Positions 2,794-31,773 of a DNA stretch of 36,058 nt are shown piece by piece (the stretch's first letter is position 1; each line of letters starts with the position of its first letter). Source of the DNA: a virus. Taxonomy: Duplodnaviria; Caudoviricetes. A program made the position numbers and the translations under genes. Location of the stretch: positions 1 through 36,058 of IMG/VR virus record IMGVR_UViG_3300016662_000121. One strand, written 5' to 3'. The notes under the pieces are model-generated. The model had not been told where the DNA came from and made no database searches. It worked only from the letters and a program-made list of their open reading frames with translations.

Positions 2794-3528
2794 ATGCAAA
2801 AACGCAACGTATCCTCCGTCTTAAGAGCACTGCTCGATCAGCACGGGATCTCCCCCACGGAGCTCCACCGTCGCACCGGCGTGCCTCAATCCACTCTCTC
2901 GCGGATTCTCAGCGGGAAGATCGTCGATCCTTCGGATAAACACATCTCGAAGATCGCCGAGTACTTCGCCGTGAGTACCGATCAGTTGCGCGGGCGCGCG
3001 GATGTTGCGCCGGTCGCGGGCGGCGGGCGCGAGGAGTTGCATTCCGAACTCAAGGACATAAGCCTGTGGGACGATGACACGCCCGTCGATGACGACGAGG
3101 TGTCGGTGCCCTTCCTTCGCGAGGTTGAATTGGCTGCTGGATCAGGAAGATTCGTCATCGAAGAGAGCGAACGCTCTAGCCTGCGCTTCGGCAAGCGCAG
3201 CCTGCGCCATAACGGCGTGCAGTTCGACCAGGCCAAATGCGTGACCGTACGGGGCAACAGCATGTTGCCGGTGCTGCGTGACGGTGCCACCGTCGGTGTG
3301 AACGCGGGCAAGTGCGGGATCGGCGATATCATTGATGGCGACCTTTATGCGATCAACCACAACGGTCAGTTGCGGGTGAAGCAGCTCTATCGCCTGCCAA
3401 CCGGTATTCGCCTGCGCAGCTTCAATCGCGACGAGCATCCGGACGAGGACTACAGCTTCCAGGATATGCAGGAAGAGCAGATCGTCATCCTTGGTCACGT
3501 CTTCTGGTGGGGCATGTACGCCCGGTAA
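2794..3528 (+). CDS. prtR: PrtR-like XRE-family repressor with C-terminal S24 autopeptidase (RecA*-cleavable tailocin repressor)
   Basis: N-terminal HTH (ISPTELHRRTGVPQSTLSRIL), AAG cleavage motif (ELAAGSG), catalytic Ser (GNSMLP) and Lys (VKQL); position next to mutS. Confidence 0.9.
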   Translation: MQKRNVSSVLRALLDQHGISPTELHRRTGVPQSTLSRILSGKIVDPSDKHISKIAEYFAVSTDQLRGRADVAPVAGGGREELHSELKDISLWDDDTPVDDDEVSVPFLREVELAAGSGRFVIEESERSSLRFGKRSLRHNGVQFDQAKCVTVRGNSMLPVLRDGATVGVNAGKCGIGDIIDGDLYAINHNGQLRVKQLYRLPTGIRLRSFNRDEHPDEDYSFQDMQEEQIVILGHVFWWGMYAR

Positions 3529-3545: not shown

Positions 3546-3571
3546 AAAACCCGCCACGGCGGGTTTTTTTT
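3546..3571 (+). terminator. Intrinsic terminator after prtR
   Basis: AAAACCCGCCACGGCGGGTTTTTTTT: GC stem plus long U tract. Confidence 0.85.
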
Positions 3572-3613
3572 CGCCTGTAGAAAACCGGACAACCCTTGAT
3601 TGGCAGGGCTTCC

Positions 3614-3686
3614 ATGCATCCGCGCAATTCTCGTGCATAAATAAATGCATTTACGCATTGACTGGATATGCATGAATGCATATTCT
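3614..3686 (+). promoter_or_regulatory. Main tailocin operon promoter overlapped by ATGC-N6-GCAW operators
   Basis: TTGACT (3658-3663), 17 bp, TATTCT (3681-3686); dyads at 3614-3627 (GCAA variant), 3645-3658 and 3668-3681. Confidence 0.75.
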
Positions 3687-3692
3687 TGCCAC

Positions 3693-3988
3693 CAAGCCGC
3701 TCGACAAAGCGGCTGGCAACAACAGCTCTTTAGTTCCACAAGAACAGGCAGCGATGAACCGGCCTCAACGGTTCAGAGGGTTGGCAACTGACCCGGGTGT
3801 GCAGCGTAAAGCACCAGAAGCAGTTATCCGGCGGGCAGGGACCGCGGTCGGAAAAACAATTTGAACGGACTCGTACCGCGCCAGTAGCGCCGAAAAGTCA
3901 GCTTCCTTCACGTACACAGGATTGAAGGAAGGCGAAGGAGCGCATTACTGAAAAGCCCGGTGAAATGCCGGGCTTTTTGGAATGCCTG
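3693..3988 (+). ncRNA. Putative structured leader RNA ending in a terminator
   Basis: Hairpins 3695-3714, 3755-3775, 3778-3794 (GCAA loop), 3843-3880, 3902-3931; boxA-like GCTCTTTA 3725-3732; no convincing ORF. Confidence 0.5.
3941..3988 (+). terminator. Terminator-like element, copy 1 of a direct repeat
   Basis: CGCATTACTGAAAAGCCCGG-tgaaatg-CCGGGCTTTTTGGAATGCCTG. Confidence 0.8.
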
Positions 3989-4088
3989 TCCTGGGCGCCA
4001 ACATCGAAACTCATTGTGCCCGCGAGTGCGGGTGGGCAATGGACGTCGATAAACCACCTATCAGACGACACTGAAAAAAGGAAAAAAC

Positions 4089-4511
4089 ATGCGCCGATAT
4101 GGACGTGTTGATCAGGATCGAATTGTCGAGTTTTTTGAAACCGACGGTGATATCACACAAATTTTTCACCCAAGCATTATCTGGGCAGAAGTGACCGATC
4201 ACCCCGAAGTACAACTGGGCTGGGTCGCCACCAAAACCGACGGTGTCTGGACCTTCGCCGCCTATGTGCCGCCACCGCCGACCGAAGAGGAACTCATCGC
4301 TCAGGCGCAACTGAACAAATGGCAACTGTTGAACGTGGCCGCCAACTGGCTGCTGCTCAACTCCCTGCAGTTCAAGGTCGACACCGGTGTGGCCACCCCT
4401 GACGAACAGGCTCTGTTGCTGGCTCACAAGATGTACTCCATCGCTGTCAGCGACATCGACAAACAATCGGGTTACCCGGCAAACATTGTCTGGCCGGTGG
4501 CTCCGTACTGA
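4089..4511 (+). CDS. Orphan tail fibre assembly (Tfa) protein
   Basis: C-terminal Tfa-type signature LQFKVDTGVATPDEQALLLAHKMY...YPANIVWPVAP; AAGGA RBS. Confidence 0.75.
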   Translation: MRRYGRVDQDRIVEFFETDGDITQIFHPSIIWAEVTDHPEVQLGWVATKTDGVWTFAAYVPPPPTEEELIAQAQLNKWQLLNVAANWLLLNSLQFKVDTGVATPDEQALLLAHKMYSIAVSDIDKQSGYPANIVWPVAPY

Positions 4512-4560
4512 CGGTGTTTGAAAGACAGCACTGACGACTATCAAATCAAAGGAAGCAAGA

Positions 4561-4980
4561 ATGAATCGCTACATACTGATGACCGCGGCCAACTCCTACA
4601 ACCTTGTCCTCGACGTGGTGGATACCGACGGGCCGATCCCTGAGGTGCCGGCAGATGAGCCCTTTTCGAGCTGGCAGGACTATACCGGTAACACTACTGC
4701 AGAGCCGGGTATGAAAATGGTATGGAACGGGCTACCGAGTTTTGTTCCGACAACCGCAACTGAGCGGGAGGCCATGAAACAGGGACGCATTCAAACGCGG
4801 CTTCAGGCTGCCCAAAGCTGGTTGATGTTCAATCCCGTGCAATACAAATCGGATCTGGGGACTGCCTCTCCAGCCGAGGAGGCCGCATTGCTTGCCTACA
4901 AGCAGTACTTCGTTGCGGTCGCCGAAGTGAAAAATCAAACCACCTTTCCGAAGCTCAACTGGCCGGTCGCACCGTTCTGA
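4561..4980 (+). CDS. Second orphan tail fibre assembly (Tfa) protein
   Basis: VQYKSDLGTASPAEEAALLAYKQY...FPKLNWPVAP; C-terminal half is paralogous to 4089-4511, N-terminal half differs. Confidence 0.75.
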   Translation: MNRYILMTAANSYNLVLDVVDTDGPIPEVPADEPFSSWQDYTGNTTAEPGMKMVWNGLPSFVPTTATEREAMKQGRIQTRLQAAQSWLMFNPVQYKSDLGTASPAEEAALLAYKQYFVAVAEVKNQTTFPKLNWPVAPF

Positions 4981-5010
4981 TCCAGCGAGCTTCAAACTCG
5001 ACATCGAGAA

Positions 5011-5059
5011 CGCATTACTGAAAAGCCCGGCCCTTGTGCCGGGCTTTTTGGAATGCCTG
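5011..5059 (+). terminator. Terminator-like element, copy 2 of the direct repeat
   Basis: CGCATTACTGAAAAGCCCGG-cccttgtg-CCGGGCTTTTTGGAATGCCTG; only the loop differs from 3941-3988. Confidence 0.8.
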
Positions 5060-5121: not shown

Positions 5122-5469
5122 ATGACAAACGAGCAACAAGCGTTGGCGGACATGCCGATCTGGCTGGTCATCCTGCTTGCCGTGGCGGGCGGGGTCTCCG
5201 GCGAAATGTGGCGCGCCGACAAGGACGGCGCCCGCGGCTGGCCGTTGCTGCGCCGGCTGGCCCTGCGCTCCGGCGCCTGCATGATCTGCGGCGTCTCGGC
5301 GATCATGCTGCTGTACGCCGCCGGCATGTCGATCTGGGCCGCCGGCGCTTTTGGCTGCCTTACCGCAATGGCCGGTGCCGACGTGGCCATCGGTCTGTAT
5401 GAACGCTGGGCCGCCAAACGCATCGGCGTCTGCGAAGTTCCGCCCGCCAATACGAATAAGGAGCAATGA
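5122..5469 (+). CDS. Phage-type holin of the tailocin lysis system
   Basis: 115 aa with several hydrophobic helices; AGGAGG RBS; typical position upstream of the tail genes. Confidence 0.85.
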   Translation: MTNEQQALADMPIWLVILLAVAGGVSGEMWRADKDGARGWPLLRRLALRSGACMICGVSAIMLLYAAGMSIWAAGAFGCLTAMAGADVAIGLYERWAAKRIGVCEVPPANTNKEQ

Positions 5470-5663: not shown

Positions 5664-5700
5664 CTGCTAATAATAAATAATCGACTTATAGGTGATATAT

Positions 5701-6552
5701 ATGGCTACATTGCCGCGTTACCCCTTTACAACCGACGGCAGTTCGATTCTGTTGCCGCTGCATGAAATGTCTGCTGGACAATATCTTCAGTCGCCAGACA
5801 AGCGTTTTAAATTGATTGTTCAACCCGATGGCAATCTGGCGATTTACGAAGGAGCAAATACAGTTTGGGTGGCGATTGCCGGTCAACCCTATACAAGCTC
5901 CGGGAAGCAGATAGACAACTCAAAAATTTACTTTTATCTGATGTATTACGCGTTCCTCAACGATCCAACGCGTGGCCGTATGTGGGGCACTGCTAACAGC
6001 ACGCCTCTCAATTCTGATATCTGGGCGGCTTACAATCGTGCCTATCTATCTCTGCAGAATGATGGAAACCTTGTAGTGGTCGACTCGATTCCCGTCTGGT
6101 CAAGCAACTCTGCCATTCCTATCAGTCCATCTGTGGAGTCCGTATATATTCCGGCGGGTACAACGCTTGAGGTTGACCGTCGGTATGTTGTGGGAGGGAC
6201 GACTCTGGTCTTCCAGTCGGATGGAAATCTGGTGGTTTCAAACGGACCACTTGGAGTCCTGTGGGCGAGCTGGACCCAGAACAAAGGTGCCACTCGTGCA
6301 GTCATGCAAGAAGATGGAAATTTTGTGATCTATGGACAAAACAATACACCGCTCTGGTTTACCGGAACTGCCGGTCAGCCAGGTGCAATGGCGAAAGTTC
6401 AGGCAAATGGCAGTTTCTCTATTGTCAGTGAAAAGCCGGTTTGGGCTCGATTTGGTTTCACGCCAACTATTTTGCCAAAACGCGTATTCCAGTGGGACAA
6501 CGGACCATGGAAACCGCTAATCGAAATTCCTTTGTGGCGTTTTAAAGATTAA
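5701..6552 (+). CDS. llpA: LlpA / L-type lectin-like bacteriocin (tandem monocot mannose-binding lectin domains)
   Basis: QxDxNxVxY-type motifs QPDGNLAIY, QNDGNLVVV, QSDGNLVVS, QEDGNFVIY; LQSPDKRFKL and PVWARFGFTP signatures; 283 aa; AT-richer than flanks. Confidence 0.9.
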   Translation: MATLPRYPFTTDGSSILLPLHEMSAGQYLQSPDKRFKLIVQPDGNLAIYEGANTVWVAIAGQPYTSSGKQIDNSKIYFYLMYYAFLNDPTRGRMWGTANSTPLNSDIWAAYNRAYLSLQNDGNLVVVDSIPVWSSNSAIPISPSVESVYIPAGTTLEVDRRYVVGGTTLVFQSDGNLVVSNGPLGVLWASWTQNKGATRAVMQEDGNFVIYGQNNTPLWFTGTAGQPGAMAKVQANGSFSIVSEKPVWARFGFTPTILPKRVFQWDNGPWKPLIEIPLWRFKD

Positions 6553-6560
6553 TTATTTTG

Positions 6561-6589
6561 AAATTTGCCTCCCGCTTGGGAGGCATTTT
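6561..6589 (+). terminator. Terminator after llpA
   Basis: TGCCTCCC-GCTT-GGGAGGCA followed by TTTT. Confidence 0.7.
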
Positions 6590-6732
6590 CATAATGCTTC
6601 CATCCGATGTTTTATGCGTGCTTCACGAAGTTTCAATTTGAATTTATCGTTTTTTAGCTGAAACCCGATATTTCGCCTCGCTGCATGTTCTGCGGCGGGA
6701 CTGCGCGTGGACATTCAAAAAGGAGGTCATGC

Positions 6733-9837: not shown

Positions 9838-12800
9838 ATGGCTGACTATTACACCCTGCTCACCAACGCAGGGATTGCCTACGAAACGGCGTGCAAGGCC
9901 GCGGGCGTGCCGATCAAGCTGACGCAGATTTCCGTCGGCGACGGCGGCGGCGCGGTCTACAACCCGGCCGCGACAGCTACCGCGCTGAAACGCGAAGTCT
10001 GGCGCGGACCGCTTAACGCGCTGTTCCAGGACGAGAAAAATCCGAGCTGGCTGCTCGCCGAAGTCACCATTCCGCCGGACGTCGGCGGCTGGTACGTGCG
10101 GGAAGCCGGGCTGTGGACCGACACCGGCATTCTCTACGCCATCGTCAAATACCCGGAGTCGTTCAAACCGGTGCTGGCCACGTCCGGCTCGGGCAAAGAG
10201 TTCTACATCCGCTCGATTTTCGAGACCAGCAATGCCTCGCTGGTGACGCTGCTGATCGATGACACGGTGGTCAAGGCCACCCGTGCCTGGGTCATGAGCT
10301 ACCTCGCCGAAGAACTCGGCAAACTTGATGGCAAGCAATCTGTGCGCGTCGCTGCCACCGCCAACGTGGTGTTGAACGGTGCGCAGCAGATCGACGGTGT
10401 GGCGGTGATTGCCGGAGACCGCGTATTGCTGCCGAACCAGACCCTGGCCAAGGACAACGGCCTGTGGATCGTCGCCAACGGTGACTGGGTGCGGGCCAAC
10501 GATGCCAATGTCAGCGCCAAGGTCACACCGGGCCTGACGGTGATGGTGGAAGAGGGCACGCTCAACGGCGATTCGCTGTGGCACCTGACCACCAACACGC
10601 CGATCACCCTCGGCACTACTGCGCTGACATTCAAGATGCTCGCAGGGCGCACCGGGATTGCCGCCGGGACTTACAAGAGTCTGAGCGTCGACGAGTATGG
10701 CCGCGCGACGGCCGGCTCGAATCCAGACACGCTGGCCGGTTTCGGCATCAAGGATTCCTACACCAAGGCTGAAGTCGAAGCGCTGATTGCCAAGGCCTCG
10801 GCATTGCCGGTGGGTTCGATTGTGGCGTTCCCCGTTGATACGCCGCCACCGGGTTTCCTGGAGCTGGACAACAGCGTCAAGAGCAGCGCGACCTACCCGG
10901 ACTTGAGCGCCTATCTGGGTGGCAAGTTCAACAAGGGCGATGAGGGTGTCGGGAATTTCCGCTTGCCTGAAGCGCGTGGGGAGTTTTTGCGCGGTTGGGA
11001 TCATGGGCGTGGAGTGGATGCCGGGCGTGGTGTAGGCAGTCGGCAGAAAGGTTCGCTCTCTGGTTATGACGCGGATTCGAACGGTCTCAGTGCCGCGATG
11101 GGGATGGGTGCAGCAAGTGGTAGCAAGGCTGACGATTTTGGGCTGGATGCATATTCAGCATCAGGGAATGCGTACTCCGTAACGATGGGTTACGCCACTT
11201 TGATTGGTTCCAGTACACCGAGCGATCTGTACGCTGGCATTGTCAGACCACGCAACATCGCCGTCATGTGGTGCATCAAAGCCTGGAACGCCCCGGTCAA
11301 TCAGGGAAACATTGATGTAGCAGCACTGGTCAAGGAAGTCTCTCGGTTGGGATCTGCCGTTCCGGTGGGCGCTGTCATGGCGTTCCCGACGGGGATCGTG
11401 CCTCCGGGGTTTCTTGAGCTGGATGGCAGTGTGCAGAGCACTGCGACTTATCCGGATCTGGCGACTTACCTCGGCACAACATTCAACAGGGGCGATGAAG
11501 GAGTTGGTAACTTTCGGCTGCCGGAGTCGCGTGGTGAGTTCCTGCGTGGCTGGGATCATGGTCGTGGTGTGGATAGCGGGCGAAATTTTGGCACGTATCA
11601 GGCTGACGATTTCAAGGCGCACAATCATCCGCCGGCAAATAATCGTCCGGGCTTCATGACTAATGAGTTTCCAACGGTTCAGGCATATCACGCAGCCGCT
11701 TCGGGGGGACCTCAATCCTACTCGGGTGAAGGGCAACAGATTGCTACGACGGGTAACCGGGGAGGCACGGAAACCCGCCCCCGCAACCTCGCCGTCATGT
11801 GGTGCATCAAGGCCTGGAACGCGCCGATCAATCAGGGGAACATCGACGTAGCAGCACTGGCCAAGGAAGTCTCGCAGCTCAAATCGTCTGTTCCGGTCGG
11901 CGCTGTCCTGTCGTTTCCAATGGGTGTCGTGCCTGCCGGTTATCTGGAGCTGGATGGCAGTGTGCAGAGCATTGCGACCTATCCGGATCTGGCGGCGTAT
12001 CTCGGGACAAAATTCAACAAGGGGGACGAAGGCGCGGGCAATTTCCGCCTGCCAGAGTCTCGCGGTGAGTTTCTGCGTGGTTGGGATCATGGACGGGGTG
12101 TGGACGCTGGACGGGAGCTGGGAAGTTTCCAGAAAGCAACGCTGCTAGCGTGTGACGCAATTACTCCTGACCTTCTAGCAAAACAAGACACCACCGTAGC
12201 TTTCAAGCTTGGCATGACTCTTTCCGAGAATAGCCATTCGTACATTGGTGGGGATGTTGTCAACAAGACTGCTTATCCTGAAACGGGAATCACCATCAGC
12301 ACGAGCGATAATTCTGGAACGCTGTATCTGGATACGCCGGCTATTTTTGATCGTGGCAATCTGGTTGGCACCCGCCCGCGCAACCTGGCGGTGATGTGGT
12401 GCATCAAAGCCTGGAACGCACCGGTCAATCAGGGAAGCATTGATGTCGCAGCGCTGGCCCCTTTGGCCCAGCAAGCGACTGAAATAAAGCAGGGTACGGC
12501 CAAGGTCGCCACTCAGACTCAGGTTGAGTCCGGCATGGATGACGCAACAATCGTCACGCCGAAAAAGATGCGCTGGGGTTTTGCCAGCCTTTTTGCGAAC
12601 AACGGGTATGTCGTCTTTCCGTCATGGATGGGTGGGTTGATCATTCAATGGATCGGCAGCACGACGTTGGGTGTACAGGGGGCAGGTTCGAGCTTTCCAC
12701 TGGCGTTCCCCACAGCGTTGTTCGGAGTTTGGGTCACGGCGGTCAACGGACCGGCCACAGCTGACGTTTCTTTGGGAGCCAAGAGTTTGACCGGTTTCAC

Positions 12801-13288: not shown

Positions 13289-13368
13289 ACGCCCCGCACC
13301 CCGGGGCGTTTTCTTATCCGCCAAAAATATCCAACACCCGCCAAGCCCCTCCCTTTGAGGGGCTTTCC
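13288..13368 (+). terminator. Two tandem hairpins / terminators between chaperone and sheath module
   Basis: AACGCCCCG-caccc-CGGGGCGTT+TTCTT (13288-13315) and AAGCCCCTC-ccttt-GAGGGGCTT (13343-13365). Confidence 0.65.
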
Positions 13369-22298: not shown

Positions 22299-22325
22299 AG
22301 CCCACCTCGCGTGGGCTTTTTATTT
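22299..22325 (+). terminator. Intrinsic terminator between sheath 2 and tube 2
   Basis: AGCCCAC-ctcgc-GTGGGCT+TTTTATTT. Confidence 0.7.
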
Positions 22326-23112: not shown

Positions 23113-25220
23113 TGGCTAATACACAATTGAGCCTGATCCCGCAGAATTTCCCCGTCACGGTCAACATGCTCGTGGTGCTCAAGGGCGCCGAGAAAATGGA
23201 GGCCGAGATGAAGGGGCTGCGCGGCAAGGTCGCAGCATTCAAGAAAAGCATGGAAGACAGCGGCCTCGAGCCGCTGGACGTCGCCGGTTTCATCGCCGAA
23301 GGTGGCCTGCTCAAGCCGTTTCAGGACGGCATCAAAAAGGCCATCGAAGCGCAGGATGCACTGGCGAAAAAAGTCCGGGCGAACAAGGGGCTGAAAGTCC
23401 CCAAGGTCGTCCAGGGCGAAACCTCCGCCAACCTCAAGAAGTTCAACGAGGCGCTGGACAAGGTTTCGCTGAATATCGGTCAGGCGCTGCTGCCGGCCGT
23501 CAACGGCATCGTCACGGCGTTGACGCCTGTGATCACCTCGGTTGGCCAGTTCGTCGCGAACAACCCGTACCTCGTCGAGGGACTGGCGGCAGCGGCGGTG
23601 GCGTTCACGGTGGTGACGGTCGGGGCGATGGGGCTGGTCGCGGTGTTGGGGATCCTGACGTCACCGATCGGCCTGATTGCTGCGGCCATTGCGGCGGCGG
23701 TGGCGCTGATCGTGATTGGCGCGCGTCTGATTACCGACAACTGGGCGTCGATCAGCGGATTCTTCAGCGAGACCTGGCAGTCGGTCAGCGATGCAACCCA
23801 TCGCGGTATCGACAAGGTTCAGAAGGGCTGGGACGAGATGGCAACGGGGGCGAAGCTGAAATTCGACTCGATGCAAGCCTCGGCCAAACAGAAGTGGCAA
23901 GAAATGAAGGCTGACGCCGTTGCCGGTGCCAGTCGTCTTGCCGAGGGCGCGTCCGCACGCCTGGATGCATTCGGGGCGAAGATGGGCGAGCTGTGGGATT
24001 CCGCTGGCGCTGTCATCAAGGATTACTGGAACGACGCAGTCGCCGGTAGCGTTGCCGGTCTGGAAGCGCTGAAGGCCAATCTGTACACCTCGCCGAAGGC
24101 GAAACTGGCCGAGGTCTGGGGTGCGACTCAAACGGTATTCGGTGAGTTCTGGGACAGCGCGGCAGCAAAAGCCGCGACTGGCATGGAAGCGCTGAAGGCC
24201 AATCTGTACACCTCGCCGAAGGCGAAACTGGCCGAGGTCTGGGGTGCGACTCAAGCGGTGTTCAGCGAATTCTGGGACAGTGCGGCAGCCAAAGCCGCGA
24301 CGGGCATGGAAGCGCTGAAGGCCAATCTGTACACCTCGCCGAAGGCGAAACTGGCCGAGGTCTGGGATTCCACGCAAACGGTGTTCAGCGGATTCTGGAA
24401 TCGTGCAGCCACCAATGCGACCACCGGCTGGGCCACGCTCAAGGCAACGTTCGACGGCTCGCTGGCGGAGAGATTTGCCGGCGTGTGGGGTTCGGCTCAG
24501 GGGATATTCACCGGTGTACTGGACAACCTGAAAGCCACCGCTTCAGCCGGGTGGGAGCAACTGAAGTCAACGTTCTCCTGGTCGCCGTTTGCCCTGATTC
24601 AAAGCAACTGGCAACCGCTGGGCGAGGTCTTTTCCGCGCTCTGGGATGTGTTGCGGGCGAGTGCGCTGACGCTGAAAAGCGAGTTCCAGAACCTGTTCAA
24701 CTTCTCGCCGATGGAGTCGGCGATGGCGCAGTGGGATGGTTTGAAGGGTTACTTTTCCGGTTTGTGGGCATCGTTGACCACGGATGCACTATCGGTCGCG
24801 AACGCCTTCGGCACATTGTTCAGTCAATCGCCGATGGAGTCGATCAAGCAAGCCTGGGAGCCGGTCCTCGGCTGGTTCAGCGAGTTGTGGGCAAAACTGC
24901 AAAGTGTCGTCGCACCGATCCGGGAATTGCTCAATGGCAATCTTTCCGGCGTTGTGGCGACGATCACCGGGCAATCCCCGGCGGCTGCTTCCGGCTCGTC
25001 AGCCATGGCCAGTCCGTTGCCGCAATCCTCCAGCGCCCTGATCCAGCAAAGCGCTGCCAACAACCGTACGCAACTCGAAGGCGGCCTGACGGTCCGCTTC
25101 GAAAACGCGCCGGCGGGGCTGCGCACTGATCAACCGCAAACCAATCAACCGGGGCTGGCGCTCAGTTCGCGCATCGGCTATCGCTCGCTATCGGCAGGAG
25201 GTTCCAATGAACTGGCGTGA
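23112..25220 (+). CDS. Tape measure protein, tailocin 2 (~702 aa)
   Basis: IGQALLP, hydrophobic segment, Trp-periodic repeats, VRFENAPAG; synteny. Confidence 0.88.
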   Translation: MANTQLSLIPQNFPVTVNMLVVLKGAEKMEAEMKGLRGKVAAFKKSMEDSGLEPLDVAGFIAEGGLLKPFQDGIKKAIEAQDALAKKVRANKGLKVPKVVQGETSANLKKFNEALDKVSLNIGQALLPAVNGIVTALTPVITSVGQFVANNPYLVEGLAAAAVAFTVVTVGAMGLVAVLGILTSPIGLIAAAIAAAVALIVIGARLITDNWASISGFFSETWQSVSDATHRGIDKVQKGWDEMATGAKLKFDSMQASAKQKWQEMKADAVAGASRLAEGASARLDAFGAKMGELWDSAGAVIKDYWNDAVAGSVAGLEALKANLYTSPKAKLAEVWGATQTVFGEFWDSAAAKAATGMEALKANLYTSPKAKLAEVWGATQAVFSEFWDSAAAKAATGMEALKANLYTSPKAKLAEVWDSTQTVFSGFWNRAATNATTGWATLKATFDGSLAERFAGVWGSAQGIFTGVLDNLKATASAGWEQLKSTFSWSPFALIQSNWQPLGEVFSALWDVLRASALTLKSEFQNLFNFSPMESAMAQWDGLKGYFSGLWASLTTDALSVANAFGTLFSQSPMESIKQAWEPVLGWFSELWAKLQSVVAPIRELLNGNLSGVVATITGQSPAAASGSSAMASPLPQSSSALIQQSAANNRTQLEGGLTVRFENAPAGLRTDQPQTNQPGLALSSRIGYRSLSAGGSNELA
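24061..24429 (+). repeat. 3 x 123-bp (41 aa) tandem repeat in tape measure 2
   Basis: Identical 60-nt core TGGAAGCGCTGAAGGCC...GAGGTCTGGG at 24061, 24184 and 24307. Confidence 0.95.
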
Positions 25221-31742: not shown

Positions 31743-31773
31743 AAGCCCACGTCACCGTGGGCTTTTTTATTTT
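31743..31773 (+). terminator. Intrinsic terminator after the fibre A module
   Basis: AAGCCCAC-gtcacc-GTGGGCTT+TTTTATTTT. Confidence 0.8.

Follow-up and report, generated by a model that had tools for sequence, protein, structure and literature searches.

Locus and control region

Here, we analysed a window of 36,058 nt (IMG/VR record IMGVR_UViG_3300016662_000121, positions 1 to 36,058), which contains a mutS-linked Pseudomonas tailocin locus of the PtbA-type mutS-cinA kind. As judged from the sequence and from neighbouring relatives, mutS occupies positions 1-2631 on the minus strand. It is followed by a gene for a CI-like repressor, the holin gene, P2-type and Mu-type contractile tails, fibre modules, endolysin and spanin. 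None of the 39 window ORFs scanned matched a capsid or terminase gene, and one short ORF among them matches a family labelled portal. Two of the tail genes are repetitive: the Mu-type tape measure gene carries a 123-nt tandem repeat in three copies (24061-24429), and the long tail fibre gene contains repeats of 531-597 nt (10845-12459).

The repressor (2794-3528, plus strand, with a predicted start codon) is of the PrtR/PtbA type with an HTH and an S24 peptidase domain and shares 90-100% identity with its relatives; a terminator-like hairpin lies 3' of its gene (3546-3571, plus strand). Further downstream we found a sigma70-type promoter equivalent to pL (TTGACT-17-TATTCT; 3658-3686, plus strand) with a predicted start site near 3693, which is the sole sigma70-like plus-strand match within 3500-36058. 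Over this promoter lie three ATGCAT-N2-ATGCAT-like palindromes (3637-3681), three of only five such matches in the window, which we regard as candidate repressor operators. The arrangement resembles that of the PtbA-type mutS-cinA R tailocins as far as the available text of PMC4684702 describes them: the repressor lies on the strand of the tail genes and is like those of lambdoid prophages (the best match of the ptbA tailocin repressor is a lambdoid prophage), prtN is missing and cargo bacteriocins are present. A leader RNA is not mentioned in the text of that paper available to us, and 'antiterm' and 'noncoding' are absent from its main text.

The leader RNA and its conserved core

The leader downstream of the promoter is composed, from 5' to 3', of a hairpin, a boxA, a 107-nt core, two accessory hairpins and a long 3' helix. 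An initial annotation of this DNA had proposed a structured leader RNA here; the hairpins, the boxA-like motif and the 3' hairpin it had listed are all present at the positions it gave, and the 296-nt leader folds better than 200 of 200 dinucleotide shuffles (z -4.04). The 5' hairpin (3695-3714, plus strand) varies between elements.

The conserved core (3746-3852, plus strand) comprises four stems and two pseudoknots, which are backed by covariation. Its stems are P2 (3755-3761/3769-3775), P3 (3778-3781/3791-3794; 4 bp), P4 with a conserved loop (3796-3800/3811-3815) and P5 (3827-3832/3847-3852; a continuous stem of 6 bp, which replaced an earlier version with a 3-nt bulge). Pseudoknot 1 is formed between the 5' strand of the core and the P2 loop (3746-3749/3762-3765), pseudoknot 2 between the P3 loop and the linker 5' of P5 (3786-3789/3822-3825). 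The 'GCAA-tetraloop stem' formerly assigned to 3778-3794 is thus the 4-bp stem P3 with a loop that takes part in a pseudoknot with 3822-3825.

In 36 diverse sequences, 96.6% of the cells are paired, compared to 31-48% with slid partners; since the structure was derived from the same sequences, this percentage is partly circular, which does not apply to compensatory changes in members found later. Both sides were changed in 18 of the 32 core pairs. When the tree was taken into account, 26 pairs showed 60 changes on the same branch, compared to 10.5 +/- 2.8 and at most 19 for 200 permuted partner sets; the core thus covaries strongly. Both pseudoknots keep pairing while their sequence changes: pseudoknot 1 reads AGGC/GCCU in the window and GGGU/ACCC, UGGC/GCCA or GGGC/GCCC elsewhere, and pseudoknot 2 reads AACU/AGUU in the window and CACU/AGUG, AACG/CGUU or CUCC/GGAG elsewhere, with four pairs in 29 of the 36 rows and three in the remaining seven. 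The core also has invariant unpaired loops and junctions, which suggest tertiary structure.

Not every pairing survived the comparison. A third pseudoknot between the P4 and P5 loops was rejected: 99% of its cells pair, two-sided changes are lacking and it is broken in distant members. The stem CGCGGT/ACCGCG (3843-3880), part of the initial annotation, overlaps the covarying P5. Energy folding favours it, and 224 of 235 tailocin copies could form it, compared to just 13 of 87 other copies. We likewise rejected the core as a leader peptide or small ORF, as no reading frame is conserved. Among 168 cores, 155 contain an ATG-led frame of anything from 4 to 113 aa and 13 contain no ATG; of 64 codon variants, 12 are synonymous and five create stops. 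The record of phage PseuP_224 annotates the RNA core as a hypothetical protein (L081:4009-4134), with a frame that is not conserved. One prophage copy ends in the P4 loop and thus comes without P5 and pseudoknot 2, a natural partial deletion (L423:1500-1570).

The Rfam search suggested for the leader returned no family for the core: at Rfam 15, the window had no match at gathering score, the core none at E <= 10, and six distant loci none at E <= 0.05. Our literature search found no description of this RNA, although supplementary motif catalogues (e.g. of PMC5737381) may still list it, and the available text of a 2026 preprint on ncRNA mining (bioRxiv 10.64898/2026.09.22.753630) contains no mention of tailocin, pyocin or antitermination. 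The RNA family is new to Rfam and strongly covarying.

Optional and accessory modules

For counts across the family, 508 profile hits were reduced to 331 distinct loci with full flanks, comprising 235 tailocin-class and 96 other loci, a crude split in which L207 and L263 are prophage-type yet counted as tailocin and L252 and L512 are the reverse. A promoter consensus was recovered 5' of the core for 231 of the 235 tailocin-class loci and for 61 of the 96 others (shuffles: 159/6,620, 2.4%), and in one locus (L534) the core begins nearly at the promoter.

The boxA-like motif GCTCTTTAG (3725-3733, plus strand) is an optional module. Its resemblance to rrn boxA, pointed out before for 3725-3732, lies in the first eight letters: GCTCTTTA is identical to the start of GCTCTTTAACA, which lies about 150 nt before the 16S rRNA in three related genomes. 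Compared to this host-type boxA, 8 of 11 letters are identical, and the ninth is G, not A. Among the distinct loci, 210 of the 235 of tailocin class and 36 of the 96 others have a boxA 5' of the core (shuffles: 12/16,550), at a spacing of about 20 to 60 nt. It is absent from 60 of the 96 copies outside tailocins and also from a subgroup of tailocins (L518, L520, L524, L525, L527, L528), which makes the pseudoknotted core, and not boxA, the probable functional unit. A subgroup of tailocin leaders (L438, L522) carries an insert of about 110 nt rich in GGA hairpins upstream of boxA, which is absent from the window.

Two accessory hairpins follow the core. The stem at 3868-3899 (plus strand) carries a conserved CCAGTAGCG-type loop and is shared by 234 of the 235 copies of tailocin class and by 54 of the 96 others. 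The hairpin at 3902-3931 (plus strand), which had been listed among the leader hairpins, is indeed present, but is restricted to a lineage (101 of 235 tailocin-class copies, one of 96 others).

At the 3' end of the leader lies a long helix with a lower stem, an internal ACUGA/UUGG motif and an upper stem (3943-3984, plus strand). It is kept in 229 of 235 tailocin-class and 59 of 96 other loci (shuffles: 9/705 and 7/288, respectively), and its lower stem covaries. Of the 229 tailocin helices, 225 have a T5 tract, while 57 of the 59 other helices have a T-run of at most three. The 'strong terminator' that the initial annotation saw before the first gene is thus a conserved long helix, whose phage and plasmid homologues lack the U-tract. 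Further helix copies were found downstream of non-tailocin cores, in sense direction in 16 of 61 cases and in antisense direction in none of 61, and tailocins have extra copies before cargo or holin, such as the one at 5013-5055 (plus strand) ahead of the holin gene of the window. The helix has the form of an RNase III site, being long, mostly paired, strand-specific, with covarying arms and ahead of ribosome-binding sites. Such sites have no reliable sequence consensus, according to the part of PMC5371410 available to us. Given its size, its place before the ribosome-binding site and the analogy to the lambda N leader, the helix is likely an RNase III-type processing site and/or a terminator. 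In many prophage left operons (L081, L206, L228, L231, L521, L085, L457), a AAGCCCGG...CCGGGCTTTTTT-type terminator lies 0.4-1.8 kb behind the core, with a stem like the upper one in the helix of tailocins; the latter helix may be a fusion of a processing helix and this prophage terminator.

Downstream genes, terminators and transcription

Between the two helix copies of the window lie two tail-fibre-assembly-like cargo genes (4089-4980, plus strand), an orphan pair that opens the operon far from any fibre gene. Relatives join position 3965 to 5037 with 23 shared letters located at the helix copies (3943-3984 and 5013-5055); cargo may therefore be gained or lost by recombination between them. 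The first conserved gene of the operon encodes the holin (5122-5469, plus strand), which directly follows the leader in 61 of 180 tailocins. An ORF for a zinc finger similar to Com of phage Mu (5505-5663, plus strand), missed by the initial annotation, stands directly 5' of a lectin-type (B_lectin) bacteriocin cargo gene (5692-6552, plus strand). Of 185 tailocin loci, 27 have Com as the first gene behind the leader; as a partner of the leader it was rejected, since it occurs in 42 of 185 tailocin but in none of 61 other loci.

The claim that no N, Q, AlpA or PrtN gene is visible stands, as there was no hit among the 39 + 13 window ORFs scanned. Behind non-tailocin copies, 138 first or second ORFs fall into 83 clusters, the commonest first gene in prophages being a small LuxR-type HTH gene (15 of 138 ORFs). 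An N-type annotation did not appear among the matches listed for the 64 first or second ORFs of non-tailocin copies scanned, although N diverges fast and profiles may miss it. In five leader-bearing genomes, PrtN was not found in three, and homologues lie on other contigs in two. Behind a distant prophage member of the family, the first gene is CsrA-like (L434:1146-1334, minus strand; the same element as L453). No protein gene travels with the RNA core.

At least five more terminator-like sites had been reported downstream of the leader, and five intergenic ones were recovered on the plus strand. Besides the second helix copy at 5013-5055, these lie after the lectin-type bacteriocin gene (6566-6593), before the first sheath gene (13289-13316), between the second sheath and the tube genes (22299-22324) and between the fibre modules (31743-31770), the latter three at the same places in a further tailocin operon (G001). 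An additional site lies inside the endolysin ORF. A stop at 22299-22324, between the Mu-type sheath and tube genes, would be oddly placed, except if polymerase reads through it or if it serves to adjust stoichiometry. In a strict scan of six other tailocin operons, the number of intergenic terminator-like sites ranged from 0 to 5; G003 had none, and the leader helix was the sole site in G344. Within 2.8 kb behind non-tailocin copies, no terminator enrichment was found (sense 27/61, antisense 25/61).

Eight metatranscriptome assemblies were compared with the window. In four of them (X8, X9, X11, X14), a contig starts at 3700, 3710, 3714 or 3723 and runs on through the T5 helix; these soil contigs of 717 nt (X8), 5,836 nt (X9), 919 nt (X11) and 1,968 nt (X14) reach the holin of a relative that has no cargo, with the limit that these four runs may be one campaign. 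Positions 3592-3655 are without RNA contig cover in X4, X9, X11 and X14. A contig of X4 covers 3714-3943 only and one of X12 covers 3676-3940, a weak hint at a stop at the foot of the helix; the end of another X4 contig at 5005 is a similarly weak hint. In X13, one contig crosses the helix to 3990 and another begins 5' of the promoter, at 3634; in X5, the leader is not covered by any contig. Contigs carry no strand or single-molecule information, may include DNA and derive from related strains, so that they show only that the leader is not always a closed transcript. A contig of X14 (record 9) joins the end of the repressor gene (3529) to the holin (5110) with 167 other letters between, and some relatives thus seem to lack the leader altogether.

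Distribution of the RNA family

The leader was found in 80 of 80 viral loci fetched by the repressor, and a pattern scan puts the number of stretches in the viral collection at an estimated 900 or so. In a relaxed version of the scan, 10 loci were confirmed by the model among 80 tested of 120; three loci (L181, L222, L224) were left out of alignment A1 as chance matches of the pattern scan. The core matches the temperate phages PseuP_224, Orimi01, Orisa01-03, Medea1 and Aurca01, and covariance models recover distant members, including P. aeruginosa phage F116 and its relatives. It lies 3' of cI- or cro-side promoters in PseuP_224, Orimi01, Medea1, Aurca01 and F116; in the four annotated phage records inspected, it stands behind the promoter of the cI-side early operon. 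All six phage records with a match have a single copy, on the left side only. No second copy behind the rightward early promoter was found in these six records, where a very diverged copy could escape.

Matches on plasmids amount to 27 of 72,556, all from Pseudomonas. Three plasmid copies were inspected; two lead into a lytic transglycosylase/virB run and one into an insertion sequence. Among 20 hand-picked genome contexts, seven were tailocins, 11 had phage early-region genes and two gave no informative hit. In the contexts seen, the core stands at the extreme 5' end of a long operon and is never free-standing.

Model R2 matched 78 of 121 genomes at the level of the genus and 16 of 151 at that of the family. 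In the wider searches, with 23 candidates scored per genome, a setting in which distant members can escape, R2 matched 2 of 151 genomes at order level and model R1 one of 151 at class level, namely the centre genome. Model R2 found no match in phages D3 and phiAH14a, chance-level hits only in YA3 and phiPSA1, nothing in HK022 (E <= 1) or lambda, and just two hits near E 0.5 in E. coli K-12. A blastn search for enteric homologues of the leader gave no match in E. coli genomes.

Discussion

A conserved structured RNA in the position of nutL or putL is strongly supported. The interpretation of the initial annotation is thus partly supported: the structured RNA holds up and antitermination in cis is also our preferred reading, but the 3' hairpin is no conserved terminator. 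Since a compact fold stands at the 5' end of repressor-controlled operons in three kinds of mobile elements, in the place of nutL or putL, often with boxA and without a partner gene, we suggest antitermination in cis. By analogy, the leader is a candidate cis-acting RNA antiterminator, put-like in action and not a member of put, a reading to which we give an even chance. A further-reaching proposal, which we hold somewhat more doubtful than that, is that the RNA constitutes a new class of antiterminator, a double pseudoknot that modifies Pseudomonas RNA polymerase without any element-encoded protein, stands in for N in Pseudomonas lambdoid phages like F116 and for PrtN in the tailocin locus most common in the genus, and was adopted in the virB operons of conjugative plasmids.

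How might such an element work? The tailocin may have taken a block of cI, pL and leader from a lambdoid Pseudomonas phage and placed lysis and tail genes behind it. DNA damage would lead to cleavage of the repressor, as is known for PrtR of P. aeruginosa. The nascent core would then fold at about 30-160 nt from the start, bind the transcribing RNA polymerase in cis and modify the elongation complex such that terminators are read through, as with HK022 put. Nus factors may add protection where boxA is present, as at nut and rrn sites. The lambda N leader is processed by RNase III, and the same enzyme is proposed to cut the 3' helix here, upstream of the first ribosome-binding site; in tailocins, the helix may double as a first, leaky terminator. 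Antitermination driven by RNA would explain why these tailocins have no need for PrtN, Q or N.

The comparison with known systems shows where this analogy ends. HK022 put brings about antitermination independent of factors via the zinc-binding domain of the beta-prime subunit. Like putL and putR, the core is a structured nascent RNA directly behind an early lambdoid promoter with no recognisable N gene. The put RNA is a V-shaped structure of 73 nt with two stems and a triplex (in stem I), according to the parts of PMC9378689 and PMC8632103 available to us; the core, in contrast, has about 107 nt, four stems and two pseudoknots, and no rightward copy was found in six phage records. With the lambda pL leader, the window shares operators over the promoter, a 5' hairpin, a boxA at nearly the same distance from the start (about 32 nt here, about 33 nt in lambda) and a long imperfect helix before the first ribosome-binding site. 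It differs in that the core stands where boxB and N are, that boxA is optional and that no conserved hairpin follows closely after boxA in the leader family. The likeness to rrn antitermination lies in the eight boxA letters shared with the pre-16S boxA of related genomes; the differing ninth letter, the absence of the motif from many family members and the lack of any boxC-like element noted in the leader set it apart. As RNA elements that head long operons of mobile elements, with plasmid cores preceding virB, conAn and the Bacillus EAR RNA are similar, as far as the available texts of PMC8191782 and PMC8632103 go. The former source describes conAn as a bipartite element of Gram-positive conjugation operons whose processivity needs the protein ConAn1, and no conserved protein gene adjoins the core RNA. 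The core is thus neither a nut site, having no boxB and no N, nor a conAn, having no conserved protein.

Several observations count against antitermination in cis. Each phage has a single, left-side copy, while HK022 and lambda signal on both early operons, and the fold is unlike put. D3, YA3, phiPSA1 and phiAH14a are without a match, YA3 being also without N. Non-tailocin copies show no sense-strand excess of terminators (27 vs 25 of 61), some tailocins have few intergenic terminators or, like G003, none, and two of five leader-bearing genomes have PrtN homologues elsewhere.

Alternative readings start from the same evidence. As in lambda N/nut or conAn, the core could be a landing site of the nut kind whose antitermination depends on a protein, either a host factor of the Nus type or one encoded by the phage or tailocin that has escaped recognition. 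This would fit with the boxA of most tailocins, which is near to that of the host rrn, with the LuxR-type HTH gene that leads the list of first genes in prophages (15 of 138 ORFs) and with the Com-like zinc finger of the window. Nevertheless, we consider this unlikely, given that no element-encoded protein accompanies the RNA (Com is found in 42 of 185 tailocin loci and in none of the 61 others, and the holin comes first in 61 of 180 tailocins) and that boxA is dispensable in many copies. Alternatively, RNase III or termination at the 3' helix might release the leader as a stable trans-acting RNA of 250-290 nt, e.g. a protein decoy or an anti-defence RNA expressed first upon induction or infection. 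We hold such a release to be rather unlikely: the compact, self-contained fold between promoter and conserved helix, the extra GGA-rich block of some tailocin leaders (L438, L522) and, weakly, the leader-only contigs of X4 and X12 (3714-3943 and 3676-3940) agree with it, but the core is never free-standing and heads a long operon in the contexts seen, contigs of four runs extend into the holin, and a tailocin would seem to have no evident need for an anti-defence RNA.

It is improbable, though in line with invariant unpaired loops and junctions that point to tertiary structure, that the core senses a ligand or protein and switches local termination at the 3' helix in the manner of a riboswitch or attenuator. 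Tailocins can form the alternative stem 3843-3880 overlapping P5, and their helix carries the T5 tract; outside tailocins, however, this stem is rare (13 of 87) and 57 of 59 helices have T-runs of at most three and hence no terminator to control. A possible pairing between the P3-P4 junction and a helix arm is without clear covariation, and the downstream genes have no common function. Very improbable, finally, appears a processing or stabilising device, i.e. a self-cleaving ribozyme or a nuclease-resistant fold that guards the 5' end of the long transcript. Double pseudoknots occur in small ribozymes, and the core lies at the 5' end beside a likely processing helix; yet neither the window nor six distant members match an Rfam ribozyme, and cutting the downstream helix would part the core from the mRNA to be protected.

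Whatever its function, this RNA belongs to a family that is common in the genus (78 of 121 sampled genomes) and absent from Rfam. To our knowledge, few RNA-only antiterminators have been described. If antitermination in cis holds true, the core would provide a second fold of this kind, and its deep covarying alignment could lead into structural work on the control of RNA polymerase by nascent RNA; the core might also serve as a compact tool for the expression of long operons in Pseudomonas. In the text of PMC7326022 available to us, Pseudomonas lambdoid phages can lack an N homologue, e.g. YA3. The 107-nt element makes two gaps testable: that of lambdoid phages without N (PMC7326022), although YA3 itself is without a match, and that of mutS-cinA tailocins without PrtN, as far as the latter are covered by the available text of PMC4684702.
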